Assembly: GCA_021734905.1 (NCBI GenBank)
Contig: JAIPIB010000001.1
Coordinates: forward strand, 71,476 to 135,475
DNA: 64,000 nucleotides
From: Minisyncoccota bacterium
Lineage (GTDB): Bacteria > Patescibacteriota > Minisyncoccia > Phycocordibacterales > UBA918
Direction of reading: 5' to 3'
A program made the translations under genes and the position numbers. The notes beneath the pieces were generated by a model, which worked only from the letters and a program-made list of their open reading frames with translations, did not search any database and had not been told where the DNA came from. Every line of letters begins with the position of its first letter. Position 1 is the stretch's first letter. This document shows, one piece after another, positions 1 to 27,685 of the stretch.

Positions 1-104
1 TATATATACTCTACAGAAGATTTTGTTCTTTTTCAAGATCCTGCGCCATAAGCTGTTTTAGCTTTAAAACCGAGTATTTCATTTAACGAATACGCGCTGA
101 AAGC

Positions 105-132
105 TTGACCTTTTTTCACCTACCTGTATAAT
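105..132 (+). promoter_or_regulatory. Candidate sigma70-type promoter (TTGACC-N16-TATAAT) about 460 nt upstream of the 16S 5' end
   Basis: ttgacc at 105-110, 16-nt spacer, tataat at 127-132. It is the only near-consensus -35/-10 pair in the AT-rich 16S leader. Confidence 0.3.
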
Positions 133-597
133 AGCGCCACTGTCCAGTTTGAGGGTATATAGCGCTTATAAGAAGGCGTTTTATTTACTTTCATTGTTTG
201 GAGGATGGTTGTTTTTTGAGAGACTTGGAAGTGTATTTATTAGATATTTCTAATACGTATATTACAAGGTCTGTCTGGCAAAGGTCAGCAGATTACATAT
301 TTCAAATAGTAATCAGCAAGTTACTGTTTGAATGTACGTATAGTTACATAGTTGTAACGACTTTTTAAGTTGTTAAAAATATGGAACGGTACGCATCAGC
401 AAAATTGAATATTGGTAAATATTCCACCAAATGAAGAAGGCAAAAGCAATCATGATCTCAAACATTGTTTGGAATCGTGCATTCTCTTTTGTCTTATCCT
501 TAGAAAATTGTTTGTTGAGGGAGAATAGTAAGTACAGTTCTCCATTACTCACAGACGCAAGATCGCACCAATCACTTCGGTGATTGCGATCCTGTTT

Positions 598-2054
<1,457 letters not shown>

Positions 2055-2207
2055 AATTGGACACGTCGTCGAAAATGGTAACATTTTCACAAACGGCTAA
2101 TTGGTCGATATTTTGTGCCTCAATTGAGCACAAAATAGGCTATAATACCTAACCCTAAAGATGGTATTCGACTCACAGGAAAGACTGAGCTAGGATAAGA
2201 CAAAAGA

Positions 2208-2302
2208 GAGTGAACGCTGTTGATGCACAAAAAGGCACCCGTAAGGGTGCCTTTTTGTGCATCAAAGAACCGTGCCTGCGCACGGTTCGTCAGCGTTCAC
2301 TG
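2208..2302. repeat. Nested palindromic structure in the 16S 3' trailer: an 11-bp outer stem enclosing a perfect 21-bp hairpin and a 9/10-bp hairpin
   Basis: Outer arms agtgaacgctg (2209-2219) and cagcgttcact (2291-2301). Inner hairpin ttgatgcacaaaaaggcaccc-gtaa-gggtgcctttttgtgcatcaa (2220-2265). Second hairpin gaaccgtgc-ctg-cgcacggttc (2267-2288). Confidence 0.6.
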
Positions 2303-2451
2303 ACCGGAGCGATATTTTGTCGACCACAAGGAGATAAAATCGCGAGGTGAGGCCGACAGGCACTTAACGAGTGCAACGAGTTTAGTGACCTGGGCTGAAG
2401 ACTCGAACCGTGCCTGCGCACGGTTCGTCAGCGTTCACTGACCGGAGCGAT
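2267..2451. repeat. Exact 47-nt direct repeat, two copies (2267..2313 and 2405..2451) with a 91-nt spacer
   Basis: gaaccgtgcctgcgcacggttcgtcagcgttcactgaccggagcgat occurs twice identically. Each copy carries the gaaccgtgc/cgcacggttc hairpin. Confidence 0.8.
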
Positions 2452-2504
2452 GTTGATAGAAGATCCTATTCAAAATGAATTGTTTAGACAAGAGGTATTA
2501 CTAA

Positions 2505-2550
2505 TACAAAAAAATAAGCCACCTAGTTATGGGTGGCTCTTGTTTTGTGC
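2505..2550. terminator. Bidirectional rho-independent terminator between the 16S trailer and the convergent minus-strand ORF
   Basis: Stem agccacc (2518-2524) / ggtggct (2532-2538), flanked by an A-tract upstream and a T-run downstream (cttgttttgtg). Confidence 0.6.
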
Positions 2551-2562
2551 ACGGAATCGTCT

Positions 2563-3060
2563 TCAGGTTGTTCTTGTTTGTGTACGCGCGACGATGAGCT
2601 TGCCAAACATTGTGAGGATATAGGGGGTTATAGGGTATGCCTTGATTACCGCAACAGGCCTTATCGGTTGGCGAGAATATGACATCCGTAAACTACCAAC
2701 GAAGCCTTTGTTCGGAAGTACATGTATGTATCCTCCATGAGGACAGAGTTGCTCTCCTTCTTTTATGAATACGACAACCCCTTTCTCTCTTACGTTCTGC
2801 CAAGGAAGATTGTCCAGAGTTGCGTAGACAATTGCAATTATTGGATTTCCAGTCGCGTAAACCGCTTTTTGGTTTTGAAATGGTGTCCGTATCCGAGCTG
2901 GTTTTGATCTCTTTGGTAGCAAGAGGCGAGATCTCTTTCTTGATCCATGAAGAATGTACTTACCTATCGAGAGTCTCTTCAGGCGTTCCATGGTGATTTT
3001 GAATTTACGTGCCTCGGTAGGGCTTATCCTTCGTAGTGCTCCAGCAGTTGTTTTTTCCAT
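2563..3060 (-). CDS. Hypothetical basic protein (165 aa), no family recognised
   Basis: Long ORF with a strong intrinsic terminator right after its stop. Arg/Lys-rich N-terminus. No motif I can name. Confidence 0.4.
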   Translation of the reverse strand: MEKTTAGALRRISPTEARKFKITMERLKRLSIGKYILHGSRKRSRLLLPKRSKPARIRTPFQNQKAVYATGNPIIAIVYATLDNLPWQNVREKGVVVFIKEGEQLCPHGGYIHVLPNKGFVGSLRMSYSRQPIRPVAVIKAYPITPYILTMFGKLIVARTQTRTT

Positions 3061-3186
3061 TACTATCTCCCATCAGAATATTTTATCTAATAGTGATATT
3101 ACAACATGAAAAGCTCTATGTCAACCTCAAGTCTTGAGGGACTTAGAATTTATCGATTATTGCCAAAAAAGTTGGACAGGAAGTAA

Positions 3187-3597
3187 TCACTGAGTCCTAA
3201 ACTGACTTGGAAGCGTGTACCCAGCATCATTATCAGCGGGGTAGGTATTTTTTTGTTTCATGTAGTCTGGTGTAATTGCTTCATTGCCAAACCCGAGCCC
3301 ACTGACGAGTAGGTTAACAATACCCCAAAGACTTATAATGATAACGAAAGCCGAAATGCTCCATATGGTCATTGAACGCGCTTTTTCATGACCTTCTTCA
3401 CTACCACCTGCAAAGATAAAGAAACGTGCTGCATTCCAAACAAATATCAGAAATGCTATCGAGAGCAAGAAGGGTATGAGTGCGCCATCAAGGAATTTAA
3501 GTATATTTGCAAGGAAAGTTTGAATATTCATTACAGTAATCATACCGCAAAAGTACCCAAAATAAGCCGAATTTGCACATATTGACAATAATTTCAT
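3187..3597 (-). CDS. Small integral membrane protein (about 136 aa from the Met at 3597). It loosely resembles VirB2/TrbC-like pilins and similar small proteins common in CPR genomes.
   Basis: Two to three predicted TM helices (LIPFLLSIAFLIFVWNAARFFIF, IWSISAFVIIISLWGIVNLLVSGLGFG). On the minus strand a tattat -10 lies about 7 nt before this ATG, which suggests a leaderless start. The ORF-track start at 3651 would overlap the divergent gene. Confidence 0.45.
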   Translation of the reverse strand: MKLLSICANSAYFGYFCGMITVMNIQTFLANILKFLDGALIPFLLSIAFLIFVWNAARFFIFAGGSEEGHEKARSMTIWSISAFVIIISLWGIVNLLVSGLGFGNEAITPDYMKQKNTYPADNDAGYTLPSQFRTQ

Positions 3598-3650
3598 ATG
3601 TGCTATAATATATATAGAAGGTGGGTCATCGCTCACTAGAGGAGAATACA

Positions 3651-3830
3651 ATGCACGTTGTGAAAAAAGAAAGTAAGGCCGAAATACTCATGGGCTCCAT
3701 TTCTTTTGTTCTTTTCCTTTACCTCTTGATTGGGACGCCAGTATGGATGTCCCTCGCAGAAGGAAAGCCAATCTTCCCCGGTCTGCTCTATGAGCCAGCG
3801 GTGAGATTGATTCAAGCGGTTCTCGGGTAA
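3651..3830 (+). CDS. Small membrane protein (59 aa)
   Basis: gctataat -10 at 3603-3608 and GAGGAGA 7 nt upstream of ATG 3651. One TM helix (ILMGSISFVLFLYLLIGTPVWM). Followed by a hairpin plus T-run at 3854-3885. Confidence 0.35.
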   Translation: MHVVKKESKAEILMGSISFVLFLYLLIGTPVWMSLAEGKPIFPGLLYEPAVRLIQAVLG

Positions 3831-3853
3831 AACCCGCGGAACAGAAACAAAGT

Positions 3854-3936
3854 CGGGAGCGATTCATTTCGCACCCGGCTTTTTTAGTGTCGATAATACA
3901 AAACGCCGACATGCGCGCATGCCGGCGTTTTGTATT
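3854..3936. terminator. Two adjacent hairpins: terminator for the plus small ORF (3854-3885) and a bidirectional hairpin aaaacgccg..cggcgtttt (3901-3931) that serves the minus-strand tRNA
   Basis: gggagcga/tcgcaccc stem followed by ggctttttt. Perfect 9-bp stem aaaacgccg / cggcgtttt flanked by T/A runs. Confidence 0.55.
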
Positions 3937-3962
3937 TAATTTTGGATATTTTACGTACTTTG

Positions 3963-4036
3963 TCCGCGCTCTAGGATTCGAACCTAGGACCCTCCGAGTA
4001 TCAGTCGAATGCTCTAGCCAACTGAGCTAAGCGCGG
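3963..4036 (-). tRNA. tRNA-Ile (anticodon GAU)
   Basis: The reverse complement folds as a cloverleaf: acceptor CCGCGCT/AGCGCGG, D-stem GCTC/GAGC, anticodon stem TTCGA/TCGGA with loop CTGATAC (anticodon GAT), T-arm CTAGG-TTCGAAT-CCTAG, discriminator A. No encoded CCA. Confidence 0.85.
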
Positions 4037-4212
4037 ACAAATGGCACAAAATATCAAAATGGTTTACTGCTCTCGTGAGAAGTCATTTGGATACTCACCA
4101 ATCAGTCACACGATACTACCAAAAACTAAGCAATTGAGCAATGAATTGACACAATAGTATTTTGAGACACATATTGATATAGTACTGAAGGACTAAACAT
4201 GGAGGGTTTGAA

Positions 4213-4410
4213 ATGGCACGAGGAAAGACCTATTCTGCAGCAAAAGTTAAAGGTGGGACTCAACCACAAGAGAAAAAGTTTATTCCTGGAGGTACAGCAG
4301 TGAGACGTCTCGACAACGCGCGATTCGTTGTTCGACATAGTGGTGCTGATGGCTTACGGTTTGAGGGATATATCGGCCTCTTCAATCCACAGTACTTCTA
4401 CCCACTGTGA
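4213..4410 (+). CDS. Small basic protein (65 aa), unknown function
   Basis: GGAGGG 5 nt upstream of the ATG. Canonical terminator aaagcctgc..gcaggcttttt at 4428-4460 immediately downstream. Confidence 0.4.
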   Translation: MARGKTYSAAKVKGGTQPQEKKFIPGGTAVRRLDNARFVVRHSGADGLRFEGYIGLFNPQYFYPL

Positions 4411-4426
4411 GTTCTTTCAACAAACG

Positions 4427-4461
4427 AAAAGCCTGCGGTATTTCCCAGCAGGCTTTTTCTT
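4427..4461 (+). terminator. Rho-independent terminator
   Basis: aaagcctgcgg-tatttccc-agcaggcttttt followed by ct. Confidence 0.7.
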
Positions 4462-4760
4462 ATGAATTTTTAATACAGCTAGTTAACTGGTTGAGACGTT
4501 CCCATATCGTTAAGTCGCTGTTCAAGTCTGTCGACACCATCGCCGATTTGTGCAAGATCACTTTGGAACTGGACAGTAAGATTGTAAGTAAAAAATGCAA
4601 ACCCCACAATGAGAGTCCAGGCTATATATGGAAAGATTTTGTGTGATTCAAGCGTGTGTTTCATATGTGAGTAGTATAGCAAAGCATGTTTGTATATGTC
4701 GTATTGAGATGTTAGTATCCTTCATGGAATCGATACTTTGATTAAGAGAGGAGGCAGTAT

Positions 4761-5132
4761 ATGAATTGGTTCAATCCAGTCCCCTTAGGGGCACCACAGA
4801 GAGCGCGTAGGGTGGGTTTTTTAACTGGTGTGTGCGAATTAGCTCAGCCTAAGGAGCCAATTCTTACTGATCAAAAAAAATTTGAACTAAAACCAAAACT
4901 TGAGAAAGGAAAAGCAGCGAGCAAAAAACCTCCAAAACGCAAAAAATCTACAGTACTGCAGAGCAAATCCCTTTATTTCAAAAAAGGGCAGAGACTCCAG
5001 TATAAAAAGGGAAAAGGACCAAAAAAGGATCGAGAGAGGATTTTTGTAGTCGTTTTTCACGGACACAAAGGAATCCTCTTTGGAGGGAGAGATGTTCTCT
5101 TTTCCGAAGATTTTTTCGAACCAGTGGACTAA
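4761..5132 (+). CDS. Lysine-rich basic protein (123 aa), unknown function
   Basis: AGAGGAGG SD 8 nt upstream of the ATG. Central region is about 40% Lys/Arg (KPKLEKGKAASKKPPKRKKS...KKGKGPKKDRER). Confidence 0.5.
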   Translation: MNWFNPVPLGAPQRARRVGFLTGVCELAQPKEPILTDQKKFELKPKLEKGKAASKKPPKRKKSTVLQSKSLYFKKGQRLQYKKGKGPKKDRERIFVVVFHGHKGILFGGRDVLFSEDFFEPVD

Positions 5133-5185
5133 AAAGGAAGGAGGAAGGGAGGGTCGCAAGTAGTTTCTGCGGCCTTTTTTGTGCT

Positions 5186-6571
5186 ATGATGCGTCATATG
5201 CAGGGCGCTTCAGAATATTTTAAAGATAAGAAAATAACCGTAATGGGGCTTGGTTTGCTTGGTCGCGGTGTAGGGGATGCTGCCTTTCTGGCGGAATGTA
5301 GCGCGGAGCTTATCGTGACTGACATGAAGTCAGAAGAAGTACTCAAAGAATCACTTGAGAAGCTTTCCGCGTATAAAAACATTACCTATCGGCTGGGGGA
5401 ACACCACGAAGAAGATTTTCGAGGGCGCGACATGATTCTCGTGGCCGCAGGGGTGCCATTTGACTCGGTGTTTGTGGAAGTTGCTAGACAGGATGGAGCT
5501 GAGATCTCAATGAGTGGAGCGCTCTTTGCATCACTTTCAAAAGTTCCGATTATTGGTATCACCGGGACAAGAGGAAAGTCGACAGTGACTCACATGATTC
5601 ATCATGTTCTCAGAACTATGACTGAAGGAGGGAAGGTGCTTCTTGGAGGAAATGTGCGAGGAGTTTCAAACCTGCAGTTGCTGAAAGATGTTGAAGAAGA
5701 TTCTGTTGCAGTCATGGAACTCGACTCGTGGCAATTGCAGGGGTTTGGAGAGAAAAAGATGAGTCCACATATTTCAGTGTTCACCAACTTCATGGAAGAT
5801 CACATGAATTATTACAAAGGCAACATGGGAATGTATTTTGCTGACAAAGCAAATATTTTCATGTATCAAGATGAGCCAGATACTTTCGTAACAACTCGGG
5901 AGGTTCTTGAAAGTGCAGAAGTTTTTGCACGAGAAAAAGGATTTGAGATGGTCCAAAATATCCGACTCGCCGACACATCTATTCTTCCCGATGATTGCCT
6001 TCTTACAATGCCAGGCGAACACAACCGTCTCAATGCAGCACTTGCCATAGAGGCGCTTCGCGCCACTGGACTCACTGATGATGAAATCTTTGAAGGACTC
6101 GCGACATTTCCTGGAGTTCCTGGAAGACTCGAATATCTTGGAGAAATTAAGGGAATGAAAGTATACAACGACAATAACGCAACAACGCCTATGGCGACCG
6201 TTCGAGGGATTGAGGCGGTTGCCGGCAATAAGAACGTAGTTCTTATTGCCGGCGGAACATACAAAGAGATTGACTCGAGCGTGCTTATCGAACCAATCAA
6301 GAAATATTGCAAAAAGTTGGTTCTTCTTCCTGGGACAGGTACAGACAAACTCAAAGGAACCCTCCACACTATTCCAGTTAACTGGAATAGTGTGGAGGGA
6401 GTGACGGGTGGGGAGGTTCTTAAGAATGCGGTGGAGGCCGGGCTCGCCCATGGCGAGCCCGGCGACGTTCTCCTTTTTTCTCCTGGTTTTGCGTCTTTCG
6501 GTATGTTTTTGAATGAGTATGATAGAAATGATCAGTTTGTTGATATCATAAAATCACATGAAACTCTCTGA
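5186..6571 (+). CDS. murD: UDP-N-acetylmuramoyl-L-alanine--D-glutamate ligase
   Basis: N-terminal Rossmann VMGLGLLGRGVGDAAFLAECSAELIVTDMK. P-loop GITGTRGKSTVT. Mur ligase middle and C-terminal domains. Overlaps the murC start. Confidence 0.85.
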   Translation: MMRHMQGASEYFKDKKITVMGLGLLGRGVGDAAFLAECSAELIVTDMKSEEVLKESLEKLSAYKNITYRLGEHHEEDFRGRDMILVAAGVPFDSVFVEVARQDGAEISMSGALFASLSKVPIIGITGTRGKSTVTHMIHHVLRTMTEGGKVLLGGNVRGVSNLQLLKDVEEDSVAVMELDSWQLQGFGEKKMSPHISVFTNFMEDHMNYYKGNMGMYFADKANIFMYQDEPDTFVTTREVLESAEVFAREKGFEMVQNIRLADTSILPDDCLLTMPGEHNRLNAALAIEALRATGLTDDEIFEGLATFPGVPGRLEYLGEIKGMKVYNDNNATTPMATVRGIEAVAGNKNVVLIAGGTYKEIDSSVLIEPIKKYCKKLVLLPGTGTDKLKGTLHTIPVNWNSVEGVTGGEVLKNAVEAGLAHGEPGDVLLFSPGFASFGMFLNEYDRNDQFVDIIKSHETL

Positions 6572-7853
6572 TTACAAAAAGGCACATTTTATTGGGATTG
6601 GAGGCATTGGGATGTCCGGCCTCGCGCGTTTATTTCTTCATGGAGGCAAAGTAGTTTCTGGCTCTGATCGCTCGCCGTCAGACATTACACGGTCGCTTAT
6701 GTTAGAAGGTGCTAGCTTTTTTGAATCTCACGCAATAGAAAACATTACAGACGATATTGATCTTGTAATATACACGGAAGCCGTCAGTGAAAAAACAGAA
6801 GGGTATGTCGAACTACAAGAAGCGAAAAAAAAAGGAATTACGACGATAAATTATTTTGATGCACTAGGGATGGTTGCCAATGAATATTATCTCATTGCAG
6901 TTTCGGGAAGTCATGGAAAAACAACGACAACTGCAATGCTCATTGATATTTTTGAAGAAGCGGGGCTTGACCCCTCGGCTATTGTTGGTTCGCTACGATC
7001 GAAGACGAAGAGTAACTATCGCGCAGGGAAGAGTAAGTATTTTATTGTCGAGGCGTGTGAGTACAAACGTGATTTTCTTAGCCTTACACCAGATGTTCTT
7101 GTGATTACAAATATCGAACATGAACATGTTGACTACTATAAGAATCTTCGTGAAGTCCAACAGGCATTTAGTGAGTTTGCAGGACAGGTGCGGGATGGAG
7201 GTTCTATCGTTTTGAATTTTGGTGGACAAAATGTTGCTGCAATACTTGAGGGGATACACGCATCTATAGTTGATTATGGGAAGTATTTTGATCCGACTCT
7301 TACGTTAAAGATGCCTGGTGTCCACAATCAATTGAACGCGGCAGTAGCCAAAGCCGTGGCTGAGCTGGTTGGGATTGATTCCAAAATCACAAAGGATGCT
7401 CTTCAAAATTTTACCGGAACGTGGCGACGGTTTGAATATAAAGGGGAAGTTAACGGAGCAAAGGTATATGACGACTATGGACATCATCCGACAGAGATTG
7501 AGGCGACGATTAATGGCGCGAAGGAACTTTATCCAGATAAAAAAATAACGCTCGTTTTTCAATCACACACATACTCTCGTACGCATGCCCTTTTTAATGA
7601 TTTTGTACGGGCGCTCTCACTAGCTGATCGTGTGATAGTTCTTCCTGTCTACGCAGCGAGGGAGGAAAATATCTCCGGCGTTTCGCACACAAAACTCGTT
7701 GAAGCAATGATAAAAAGTGGAGAGGAGGCGCACACGACAGAGACATTTGTCGAGGTCGTTGAGGAACTCAAAAATTCAGCAACAAAAGACGACCTCATTC
7801 TTATCATGGGCGCAGGAGATGTTACACAAGTCGCAGGCATGTTGACGAAGTAA
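6558..7853 (+). CDS. murC: UDP-N-acetylmuramate--L-alanine ligase
   Basis: MurC signature HFIGIGGIGMSGLARLF and P-loop GSHGKTTTTAM. Confidence 0.9.
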   Translation: MKLSDYKKAHFIGIGGIGMSGLARLFLHGGKVVSGSDRSPSDITRSLMLEGASFFESHAIENITDDIDLVIYTEAVSEKTEGYVELQEAKKKGITTINYFDALGMVANEYYLIAVSGSHGKTTTTAMLIDIFEEAGLDPSAIVGSLRSKTKSNYRAGKSKYFIVEACEYKRDFLSLTPDVLVITNIEHEHVDYYKNLREVQQAFSEFAGQVRDGGSIVLNFGGQNVAAILEGIHASIVDYGKYFDPTLTLKMPGVHNQLNAAVAKAVAELVGIDSKITKDALQNFTGTWRRFEYKGEVNGAKVYDDYGHHPTEIEATINGAKELYPDKKITLVFQSHTYSRTHALFNDFVRALSLADRVIVLPVYAAREENISGVSHTKLVEAMIKSGEEAHTTETFVEVVEELKNSATKDDLILIMGAGDVTQVAGMLTK

Positions 7854-26287: not shown

Positions 26288-27685
26288 ATGGCAAAGAAGA
26301 TCTATGATTGGCTTGATCCATCAAAACAAGCCGCTGATTATTTAAACACAGTACTTGAACGGGATGATGTATTAAAAGGTGATCAGACACTTGATGATCT
26401 TCTTGAAAATGATGATGACGACAATCAGTCTTATTCCTCAGAAATTGATGTGGAAGTAGATACAAAGACCACACCAAGAAATGCACGTAATGAGCCAAAA
26501 ATCCTTTCAGATATACCAGAACGAGAACAGGCTCGTCTTCTTTTCCTGACTAAGGACACTACAATAATGCAGGAGGGAAGTCTTTCAAATCGACGGATTG
26601 CTGATCTTCGTAGTTTTTTCCTTGAAGTCCATGTCGTCGTACTTACCTTGCGAGAAGAGGAGGATGTTGCTCCCGTACGATTATTTGATAACGTGTGGTT
26701 ATATGCAACGAATTCACGTTCACCGTGGCGCATGGCATATGATGCTTATGTTGTTGTTAAAACCCAACTTATATTCGGAGGTGGATTTCGTGCCGATGTG
26801 ATTATTGCAGAGGATACGTTTGAGACAGGTCTCGTTGGATGTTTCTTTTCAAAAAAACACAAAAGACCTCTTCAGGTGCATATCAGTGAAGACTTTTTTG
26901 TTACGTCTTTTATTGAAGCACAGGAGTATCCACTTTTGTATGAATGGGCAACTAGATATGTTCTTAAGCACGCAACAAGTGTGCGCACAAAGACAGAATT
27001 TCAGCGACAAGCAGCTATTTTGGAATACCCAGATCTCACATCAGTAACTGAGATCCTCCCTAATTATTATAATTTGGAAGGATGGAAAAATTTTGTGCCA
27101 ACCGTAAATTTACGTGAGCGGTATCCTCAATTTAAATTTACATTGCTTAATATTTCATCAATGCGAAAGAGTTCTCGCGCACTTGAAGCGCTTATAGGTG
27201 CGGCAAAGATTTTGCACAGATATCCCGTCGTCGGGCTCATTATGGTAGGGAATGGTCCTATGCGCGCAGTCCTTGAGAGGTATGCAATTTCTCTTGGTGT
27301 TCAGAAACAGGTGGAGTTTGAACCACTGCCGACTGAAGTACTCTCATTCATGAGGTCTACTAATGTACTACTTCATCTTTCTGAGGACGGGGAAGACGAT
27401 GATTTTATTTTAGAGGCTGCTGTCGCAAGACTCCCTATGGTGGCAAATAAAGACGGGATCGCAGGGCAACTTTTTGTTGATGAAGAATCTGCATGTCTGT
27501 GCGCAGCTACTGATATCGAATGCATTGCCAATAGCATCAATAGATATTTAAATGAAAATCAAGATCGTGCACTGTTTACAAACAGAGCATATGACATAGT
27601 TTTCGAACGTGTTGAGCAAGACTATGGAGAATATATCAAGCAGTATGCAGAGAGCATACAACGTTGTGTCGTTAAAGAAGGTTAG
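26288..27685 (+). CDS. GT4-like glycosyltransferase with an acidic roughly 90-aa N-terminal extension
   Basis: GT-B halves are recognisable (DVIIAEDTFETGLVG... and EDGEDDDFILEAAVARLPMVAN). The N-terminus is Asp/Glu-rich. Confidence 0.65.
   Translation: MAKKIYDWLDPSKQAADYLNTVLERDDVLKGDQTLDDLLENDDDDNQSYSSEIDVEVDTKTTPRNARNEPKILSDIPEREQARLLFLTKDTTIMQEGSLSNRRIADLRSFFLEVHVVVLTLREEEDVAPVRLFDNVWLYATNSRSPWRMAYDAYVVVKTQLIFGGGFRADVIIAEDTFETGLVGCFFSKKHKRPLQVHISEDFFVTSFIEAQEYPLLYEWATRYVLKHATSVRTKTEFQRQAAILEYPDLTSVTEILPNYYNLEGWKNFVPTVNLRERYPQFKFTLLNISSMRKSSRALEALIGAAKILHRYPVVGLIMVGNGPMRAVLERYAISLGVQKQVEFEPLPTEVLSFMRSTNVLLHLSEDGEDDDFILEAAVARLPMVANKDGIAGQLFVDEESACLCAATDIECIANSINRYLNENQDRALFTNRAYDIVFERVEQDYGEYIKQYAESIQRCVVKEG

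Follow-up and report, generated by a model that had tools for sequence, protein, structure and literature searches.

Introduction

In the Escherichia coli rrn precursor, 16S ribosomal RNA (rRNA) is flanked by an RNase III stem whose 3′ strand lies about 33 nt past the 16S end. In cyanobacteria, the internal transcribed spacer (ITS) between 16S and 23S carries a conserved D1-D1′ helix, box B, box A and V3, and interspersed intergenic structured repeats are known as the REP/BIME, ERIC, Neisseria Correia/NEMIS and pneumococcal BOX/RUP elements. The Patescibacteria are among the clades with exclusively unlinked rRNA genes, a 16S being taken as unlinked when no 23S lies within 1500 bp after it or the 16S-23S gap exceeds 1500 bp (Brewer et al., bioRxiv 10.1101/705046), and loss of the anti-Shine-Dalgarno (anti-SD) motif has been reported in a Parcubacteria subgroup (Tsurumaki et al. 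2022, PMC9297842). Here we analyze the 3′ trailer of a 16S gene (positions 2055-2562) in a 64,000-nt stretch of a Minisyncoccota bacterium (GenBank assembly GCA_021734905.1, contig JAIPIB010000001.1, positions 71,476 to 135,475 of the forward strand), hereafter the window, and compare it with each of these systems.

We conclude with good confidence that this region forms the 3′ end of a stand-alone 16S transcription unit of the Paceibacteria (Patescibacteria, a group also called the candidate phyla radiation, CPR), for which an order of events can be proposed. Transcription probably begins at a promoter-like site, identified by its sequence, and would proceed through a long leader; the leader and the trailer would then close a helix around the 16S rRNA and a structured 3′ domain. 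Most transcripts would stop at a first terminator, T1, and those reading through would carry 1.4 copies of a structured element, which we call the module, before stopping at a second terminator, T2. Beyond T2 come a lineage-specific gene, orf165, and then the conserved neighbor, a pilin-like gene (Table 1).

Results

A processing helix encloses the 16S gene and a conserved spacer domain

The comparisons below use at least 119 related loci, found by a scan of the species representatives in GTDB for the unusual 3′ tail of this 16S; the matches listed are nearly all Paceibacteria/Parcubacteria, for example Kaiserbacteria and Nomurabacteria. Sequence of 5 kb or more is available downstream of the 16S in 57 of the 119 listed loci and upstream (counted to the 16S 3′ end) in 24. 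The window itself offers 596 nt upstream of the 16S and 61.9 kb downstream. In the covariation analyses, "slid" controls are those in which the pairing partners were shifted, and 500 shuffles were run for each of the tests on the processing stem and on the trailer domain.

Two complementary segments enclose the 16S gene. This leader/trailer pairing, first seen as 476-500/2192-2216 and then refined to 478-503/2189-2214, is realized at 22 of 26 positions in the window and was found in all 44 relatives having both flanks, at 21-26 of the 26 positions. Across 42 distinct sequences, 88.4% of the cells are paired compared with 48-60% in the slid controls, double changes affect 21 of the 26 pairs, and none of the 500 shuffles attained the observed values; the register was set per sequence around a fixed motif, which biases these figures mildly. 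The two strands would thus form a helix of about 26 bp around the 16S which, by analogy with the helix type cut in other bacteria, would be cleaved by RNase III. With the E. coli rrn stem it shares the complementary 16S flanks, the length of the helix and a pairing kept by compensatory changes. It departs from that stem in that its 3′ strand lies about 135 nt, rather than about 33 nt, past the 16S end, with a conserved pseudoknotted domain in between, and in that the sequence of its central 14 bp hardly varies, which points to a second role that depends on the sequence itself. Pairing of the trailer with the 16S 5′ end (607-623/2185-2201, and 625-637 with the repeats described below) was also considered; it is strong in the window only (-26.8 kcal/mol), the relatives being at the level of shuffled sequences, and is therefore incidental.

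The domain lying between the 16S end and this helix is similar in about 90 species (blastn), with 70-86% identity where the 16S itself shows 80-95%, and in an alignment of 70 sequences (A1) the conservation ends abruptly right after the processing helix. RNAalifold recovers four helices with compensatory changes in 18 of 30 pairs. When the structure is drawn by hand so as to include the pseudoknot, 94.7% of the cells are paired, as opposed to 30-40% in the slid controls, with double changes in 26 of 41 pairs and values reached by none of 500 shuffles. Three loops, GGUAAC, CUCAAUUGAG and GGAAAGAC, are invariant. A search of 1850-2600 against Rfam 15 returned no match for the domain, only noise below threshold. 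The tail of the gene carries two conserved RNA structures, this domain and the module below, that seem to be undescribed. The closest parallel is the cyanobacterial ITS, which likewise has spacer helices conserved throughout a clade beside the processing stem; the present domain differs from it by the lack of a downstream 23S, by its pseudoknot and invariant loops, and by the absence of sequence similarity, and a box A was not identified. It most likely guides precursor folding and end maturation and would then be removed.

It is worth noting that the palindromic loop of hairpin H2, CAAUUG, becomes CGAUCG in several species, so that palindromy is kept at positions unable to pair within the loop. 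This pattern suggests loop-loop dimerization or a symmetric binding partner.

Table 1. Features of the 16S unit and its surroundings, in window coordinates
Feature	Position	Strand	Evidence and remarks
Promoter-like TTGACC-16 nt-TATAAT	105-132	+	Consensus scan, 11/12 matches; the 16S 5′ end follows after about 465 nt
Processing stem, leader (5′) strand	478-503	+	Pairs with 2189-2214
16S rRNA gene	597-2057	+	Rfam RF00177, 1368 bits, model positions 1-1533, full length
16S 3′ tail GGAUUAAUUCCAAU	2044-2057	+	Without anti-SD core CCUCC; aligned to Rfam consensus GGAUcACCUCCUUu
Conserved structured domain of the 3′ external spacer	2053-2188	+	About 135 nt between 16S end and processing helix
Domain helix P0	2053-2059/2098-2104	+	16S tail with trailer; invariant in 70/70 sequences
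Domain helix P1	2065-2069/2093-2097	+	
Domain hairpin P2	2071-2088	+	GUAA loop; in relatives GUAA, GUGA or, in one species, CUCG
Domain hairpin H2	2109-2137	+	Palindromic loop CAAUUG at 2121-2126
Domain pseudoknot, H-type	Helix A 2137-2139/2154-2156 crossing helix B 2144-2149/2163-2168	+	
Domain hairpin H4	2174-2189	+	Loop GGAAAGAC
Processing stem, trailer (3′) strand	2189-2214	+	Cross-species conservation halts right after
Three-way junction	2209-2301	+	Outer stem 2209-2219/2291-2301 around T1 and small hairpin 2267-2288
Putative terminator T1	2220-2265	both	GGCACCC-GUAA-GGGUGCC then UUUUUGUG; -38.9 kcal/mol, z -9.05
Small hairpin	2267-2288	+	GAACCGUGC-CUGC-GCACGGUUC
Direct repeat, copy 1	2267-2316	+	Small hairpin, CAGCGUUCAC and module start GACCGGAGCGAU
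Module, full copy	2303-2400	+	Covariance model R1: 50.4 bits, E 4e-10
Direct repeat, copy 2	2405-2454	+	98% identical; start of truncated second module unit
Putative terminator T2	2517-2548	both	Stem 2517-2538 and U tract; -19.5 kcal/mol, z -4.2; shared with orf165
orf165, hypothetical protein, 165 aa	2563-3060	-	Convergent with 16S
Type IV secretion system (T4SS)-pilin-like gene	3187-3651	-	PF18895, E 1.2e-6
tRNA-Ile(GAU)	3962-4036	-	Rfam (3963-4036) and ARAGORN; only other RNA gene in 64 kb

Two predicted terminators and the distal trailer

An earlier note, made from the sequence alone, had described the trailer as structured and ended by a terminator at about 2505-2550. Both statements agree with our data, as the fold energy of 2058-2562 is -201 kcal/mol (z = -12.4 relative to shuffled sequences) and the terminator corresponds to T2, with its stem followed by a U tract to about 2548. 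The stronger T1, placed right after the processing stem, had been overlooked. The note had also passed over the conserved precursor domain and the processing stem, which together make up the first 160 nt of the trailer, and the nature of the repeat as a widespread RNA element.

T1 and T2 both have the form of an intrinsic terminator, a G+C-rich hairpin followed by a U tract, at which termination is predicted. The T1 core is lengthened by an upstream A tract into a perfect 21-bp hairpin (100% complementary), and for this reason it can be read as a terminator on both strands; its U tract belongs to the extended stem, which is why it escaped the consensus scan. In close relatives an equivalent of T1 stands at the same position and is followed directly by the end of the pilin-like gene. 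T2 is a 9-bp stem with 5 GC pairs, followed by CUUGUUUUGU. The segment 2203-2302, which includes T1, folds at -71.2 kcal/mol (z -12.4), and the three-way junction formed around T1 has counterparts of the same layout and different sequences in three relatives (L012, L040 and L118).

The module is a widespread covarying RNA element

A 50-nt direct repeat, of which none is expected by chance, marks the segment between T1 and T2. This segment (2267-2454) holds 1.4 copies of a two-domain structured RNA of about 97 nt; an independent assembly (L241) ends inside the repeat, and the copy number thus lacks independent confirmation. The minimum-free-energy fold of 2301-2402 alone gives the two-domain architecture of the family, and the core of the window copy has diverged (CUUAACGAGUGCAACGAGUUUAG) with the helices kept. 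Iterated nhmmer searches found the unit after the 16S trailer in four relatives, L012 (about 2.6 copies), L040, L118 and L048, always on the 16S strand. In L048 it sits between the processing stem and the only terminator, and is therefore co-transcribed there with the 16S.

The best-conserved part of the module, CUUAUGAGCGUNAGCGAAUUAG, is a hairpin in which a GNNA loop caps tandem G.A pairs; it occurs exactly in at least 120 metagenome stretches and gave 0 matches in viral contigs. In low-GC, CPR-like stretches it is embedded in the full unit of about 97 nt, whose first domain comprises helices P1 and P2 separated by a GGA/GAG loop and a P3 hairpin, and whose second comprises P4, an AGG/GAC loop, P5 with a bulged A, and the core hairpin. 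In 52 module sequences, 89.7% of the cells are paired against 31-40% in the slid controls, double changes affect 19 of 28 pairs, and the covariation score is 0.452 as compared with 0.06-0.09; the search pattern itself dictated the six core pairs, which are uninformative for covariation. A covariance model built on this family finds copies outside its training set in six further relatives, and coordinate arithmetic places the copy 45-363 nt downstream of tRNA-Ile(GAU), and on its strand, in five of them. The same model gives 122 matches in metagenome loci, frequently two or three to a locus and frequently as tandem copies. In two large contigs there are copies at separate loci, and the window has one locus only.

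The 26 module-bearing loci searched gave no match in Rfam 15, even at E<=1, and nothing turned up in full-text literature searches on the core sequence of the module, on repeat elements or non-coding RNAs of CPR bacteria, or on the structure of CPR spacers. Nor did ARAGORN and Rfam identify the module as a tRNA, transfer-messenger RNA (tmRNA), 5S or known ribozyme. In its core (CUUAUGA-GC-GNNA-GC-GAA) the module is similar to the hammerhead signature (CUGAUGA-stem II-GAA), including the tandem G.A pairs, but the essential G5 is a U and the flanks pair together, giving a hairpin and no three-way junction. We thus reject a hammerhead, as CUUAUGA ... GAAU in a simple hairpin stands where CUGANGA ... 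GAAA would be needed and Rfam gave no match at the same permissive threshold.

The exact 22-nt core hairpin is also present in high-GC, non-CPR contigs (L121, L135, L150 and L187, GC 0.60-0.63; L124, L127, L143 and L148, GC 0.65-0.70), where it is held in different scaffolds, either beside a second similar hairpin (CCUAUGCGAGCGCUAGCGAGCAUG) or between REP-like GC-rich palindromes. This hairpin may be a general recognition motif.

Module copies follow the 3′ ends of heavily transcribed genes

The gene upstream of the module is co-oriented with it in 69 of 73 classifiable cases, comprising 26 tRNA or tmRNA genes (of many isotypes), 40 open reading frames (ORFs) and 3 modules, whereas the downstream gene lies on the same strand in 39 cases and on the opposite strand in 25. 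Among the upstream ORFs, those that recur encode EF-G (13 loci), FtsZ (5 loci) and, inside the S10-spc cluster, uL5 (9 loci). Near the module loci there is no recurrent transposase, integrase or reverse transcriptase.

Where the host gene is a tRNA or tmRNA, its 3′-terminal part, counted from the T loop, recurs behind the module. In 22 of 81 instances this flank repeat is an exact match of 12-35 nt, as opposed to about 7 nt in shuffles, and the 5′ flank of the module carries the complement of the same host-gene segment. Direct repeats of a tRNA 3′ end flank the insert in L205, L131, L158, L197, L177 and others, and of the tmRNA 3′ end in L206. The window has its equivalent in 2291-2301, which complements 2209-2219, where the processing-stem strand ends.

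The tmRNA locus of L206 (about 5000-5300) shows the module after the tmRNA gene, the 3′ end repeated behind it and the complement in its 5′ flank, a layout identical to that at tRNA genes. In L207, L139, L145, L230 and others, the module and an intrinsic terminator stand right after rplE (uL5) in the S10-spc cluster; judging from this arrangement, the long operon may be interrupted after rplE in those CPR organisms.

Several classes of mobile or regulatory element were compared with the module. With integrase-mediated insertion at tRNA and tmRNA genes the module shares the direct repeats of the tRNA 3′ end; it departs from it by an insert of about 200 nt, the lack of a recurrent integrase, the occurrence after protein genes as well and the lack of viral matches. 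A prophage attachment-site remnant is rejected, as neither an integrase nor a viral-contig match was found. A type III toxin-antitoxin system formed by the repeats and orf165 is likewise rejected: the order is wrong, with the repeats placed after the ORF and its terminator, and the other module loci have no orf165. As in MITEs (transposable elements of the miniature inverted-repeat type) and REP-like elements, the copies are numerous and intergenic, with two or three within a few kb in several contigs among the at least 120 metagenome stretches; however, where MITEs have terminal inverted repeats with short target-site duplications, and REP elements a simple palindrome with a RAYT transposase, the module has no terminal inverted repeats, no transposase-like protein recurs nearby, and the flank duplications copy 16-35 nt from the 3′ end of the host gene. 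The module is comparable to REP/BIME, ERIC, Correia/NEMIS and BOX/RUP in being multi-copy, intergenic, co-transcribed and stably folded, often near terminators and with tandem or partial copies. It differs from REP/ERIC-type repeats in having a complex two-domain covarying fold with conserved internal loops instead of a simple palindrome, in being nearly always co-oriented with the upstream gene, and in spanning a phylum-level radiation with long flank duplications and no terminal inverted repeats or transposase.

The description that fits the module best is that of a structured element, REP/ERIC-like in distribution and context and strand-specific, in the 3′ flank of heavily transcribed Patescibacteria genes; it most likely reached the 16S trailer by duplicative insertion. 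Its likeliest role at the RNA level would be in 3′-end stability or processing. One could go further and regard it as a dedicated 3′-end device, whose 5′ flank would pair with the upstream RNA at its 3′ end and direct its cleavage or protection, and which would take part here in 16S maturation. The co-orientation described above, the preference for stable RNAs and highly expressed genes, the maintenance of the structure by covariation and a 5′ flank that complements the upstream 3′ end, overlapping in the window the processing-stem strand, are all in keeping with such a device. It is nevertheless found after the 16S in only 4 of the 119 listed relatives, and is therefore not essential for 16S maturation in the clade; moreover, a strong terminator precedes the window copy, and the tandem or partial copies with duplicated flanks resemble an insertion footprint. 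We thus consider a part in 16S maturation unlikely and retain the description as a 3′-flank element.

An anti-SD-less 16S tail paired with the trailer

The 16S gene is complete, and not a fragment at a contig end. In the Rfam alignment, its tail GGAUUAAUUCCAAU stands where the consensus has GGAUCACCUCCUUU, and CCUCC(U) is absent from the 3′ end, as in the anti-SD-less 16S of Tsurumaki et al. 2022 (PMC9297842). The tail is identical in at least 119 species, and some 50 of the 55 longest ORFs of the window have no SD-like, GGAGG-type motif upstream. Since the loss is also published for Parcubacteria (PMC9297842), the tail is not damaged: the missing anti-SD core is a trait of the lineage. The possibility that the true, CCUCC-bearing 3′ end lies beyond an insertion was rejected, as a search for CACCTCCT near the 16S gene found none and the odd tail is lineage-wide. 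The Parcubacteria of the published work resemble our case in the loss of CCUCC from the tail and the scarcity of SD motifs before genes. For them the paper reports that the motif is absent, whereas here the replacement tail GAUUAAUUCCAAUUGG is invariant over 70 aligned trailers and is predicted to pair with the trailer in the precursor.

The rplA region, which bears on a possible overlap with the lineage that lacks ribosomal protein uL1, lies outside the window. Hexamers resembling TATAAT are found about 7-10 nt before several start codons, for example at 26288, 36344, 28834 and 41265 (minus strand). Their closeness to the starts hints at leaderless or near-leaderless mRNAs. Some relatives have introns at or near the 16S gene: L109 gives a match to group II intron domains D1-D4 (7132-7203) about 230 nt past the 16S end, beyond the trailer, and L027 has a group I intron (1522-2501) inside its 16S. 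In several other relatives, L080, L088 and L111 being also listed, the 16S exceeds the normal length by 0.7-2 kb.

An alternative for the domain (2058-2188) is that it is retained as a 3′ extension of the mature small-subunit (SSU) rRNA, where it would alter the mRNA-binding platform. Its conservation nears that of rRNA, with invariant loops and a pseudoknot; it begins by pairing with the former anti-SD tail (P0, in 70 of 70 sequences) in a lineage that has lost SD-based initiation; and, being inside the processing stem, it would remain attached after RNase III cleavage pending a further step. On the other hand, lineages with the same tail (e.g. L003, L021 and L024) bear quite different trailers, which argues against a core ribosomal role, and the conserved spacer helices of the cyanobacterial ITS are removed after processing. 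Retention therefore appears improbable to us, and we favor a domain that acts in the precursor and is then removed.

A still weaker alternative is that this 16S is a degenerate or secondary copy, the working rRNA genes forming a linked operon elsewhere. Its tail GGAUUAAUUCC in place of GGAUCACCUCC, and GGAGG-like motifs before a few small ORFs nearby, would be consistent with such a copy, which is however very unlikely given the full-length Rfam match at 1368 bits, the identical tail across species together with the published motif loss, the scarcity of SD-like motifs before the longest ORFs, and a leader, processing stem and trailer domain that are under purifying selection with covariation.

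Unlinked arrangement and conserved neighborhood

At Rfam gathering thresholds, no large-subunit (LSU) or 5S rRNA was found in the whole 64 kb. Permissive scans gave no 23S or 5S fragment in 1-6000, even at E<=5, nor in 1850-2600, and hidden or fragmented 23S or 5S genes in the window are rejected on these grounds. Similarity to 23S or 5S was found by blastn in 0 of the 119 listed related loci, and Rfam scans of 18 relatives with long flanks gave only SSU rRNA, tRNAs and two introns. The absence of an LSU gene is thus direct over the 61.9 kb 3′ of the 16S and is argued from the relatives on the upstream side; the 23S and 5S genes would sit elsewhere in the genome.

The earlier note had reported an unlinked 16S, a convergent protein gene after it, a tRNA-Ile(GAU) about 1.9 kb away on the opposite strand, and an association of unlinked rRNA genes with small-genome and symbiotic lineages. 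The first three are found as described, within an upstream view of 596 nt for the rRNA genes, and the last is in line with the literature (10.1101/705046). Our case is like the unlinked clades of Brewer et al. (Patescibacteria, Deinococcus-Thermus, Rickettsiales, Dehalococcoidia and others) in being clade-wide, phylogenetically conserved and found in a small-genome lineage; there is no essential difference, and it is an instance of the published arrangement. What goes beyond that pattern is a loosely attached tRNA-Ile(GAU) and the conservation of the whole gene neighborhood.

The tRNA-Ile(GAU), whose end-to-16S distance is 1.9 kb in the window, lies 3′ of the 16S in 91 of the 119 listed relatives and in 73 of the 81 having at least 3 kb of flank, at a median distance of 1429 nt. 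It is on the 16S strand in 71 of the 91 and on the opposite strand in 20; the orientation in the window is therefore the minority one, a point that the note had missed. This tRNA gene looks like a displaced remnant of the ancestral 16S-23S spacer, inverted in the window: gene insertions would have stretched an ancestral 16S-tRNA-Ile-23S spacer, with a break behind the tRNA, and the tRNA together with the genes up to the 16S would mark what is left of it.

The order 16S, pilin-like gene, tRNA-Ile, murD, murC is conserved across relatives. Homologues of the pilin-like gene adjoin the 16S convergently in 87 of the 119 listed loci, with murD in 61 and murC in 50, and in relatives the gene usually ends 280-650 nt after the 16S and shares the 16S terminator. 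The neighboring genes of the window encode T4SS-pilin-like, VirD4-like, MurD, MurC, DUF4015 and LTD/PKD proteins, a set that points to Patescibacteria. The convergent orf165 is real and rare, with an exact NCBI match (a metagenome-assembled genome of Candidatus Pacebacteria) and two homologues at 66-68% identity; it has no Pfam, NCBIfam or PHROGs family, and no tblastn match in the 119 listed loci. Together with the module and T2 it makes up a stretch of about 900 nt that is absent from relatives between the 16S terminator and the pilin-like gene, and which may be a lineage-specific insertion.

A 13-nt exact inverted repeat (GATATTTTGTGCC) links 2107-2119, in a trailer hairpin, with 4043-4055, just upstream of the tRNA-Ile. 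It is probably due to chance: as a scar of the tRNA-Ile inversion it is rejected, because the pilin-like gene in between keeps the ancestral orientation and a 13-mer is not improbable in 4 kb of AT-rich DNA.

Finally, a chimeric join of the 16S to unrelated sequence near 2050-2600 is the least credible alternative, with next to no chance of being correct: rRNA genes and repeats are classic break points of assemblers, and the independent short-read assembly L241 (3,973 nt) does break in the 50-nt repeat, at about 2422, but it is 100% identical over 2422-6394 and confirms the sequence to the right, the same gene order recurs in dozens of independently assembled relatives, the 16S trailers of L012, L040, L118 and L048 are likewise followed at once by this module, and the trailer pairs with the leader of this very gene. 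The conserved gene order and the lack of a nearby 23S or 5S in all 119 listed relatives therefore exclude misassembly, and the unlinked 16S is biology, a published trait of the clade.

Discussion

Some of our observations weigh against the proposed unit and its order of events. The window reaches 596 nt 5′ of the 16S. The gene content, the conservation, the covariation of the helices, and the distribution and co-orientation of the module family are direct observations; the start site and promoter use, the mature ends, the cleavage sites, the terminator efficiencies, the removal of the spacer domain and any function of the module are predictions from sequence. The conservation of the spacer domain (72-86% identity where the 16S has 88-95%) exceeds that of a usual disposable spacer, which leaves room for its retention in the mature rRNA. 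T1 looks strong, so that the module may rarely be transcribed from the rRNA promoter; in this genome its expression might be independent, or absent altogether. The core of the window copy scores 50 bits where 80-110 is typical, and it could be decaying.

The unlinked 16S adds nothing new in itself: it is a further case of a trait already published for the whole clade, and such lineages must even now be taken into account in long-read amplicon work that spans 16S to 23S. The spacer domain, in contrast, is attached to the 16S 3′ tail within the processing helix of an anti-SD-less Paceibacteria clade and provides a testable handle: it may inform on how the 3′ end of SSU rRNA matures in ribosomes that work without SD pairing, or on whether the domain is removed.

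The repeat led us to a multi-copy, covarying RNA family with no counterpart in Rfam 15 or in the literature open to search. CPR bacteria being difficult to culture, RNA elements defined by sequence are among the few entry points to their RNA metabolism. Tentatively, and with the odds still against it, the module could be an undescribed, phylum-wide class of RNA that serves as a general 3′-end device for heavily transcribed Patescibacteria genes (tRNAs, tmRNA, 16S, and ribosomal-protein and EF-G mRNAs) and spreads by copying the host 3′ end in direct and inverted form. If this were true, organisms with a reduced set of RNases would possess a dedicated RNA solution for 3′-end formation.

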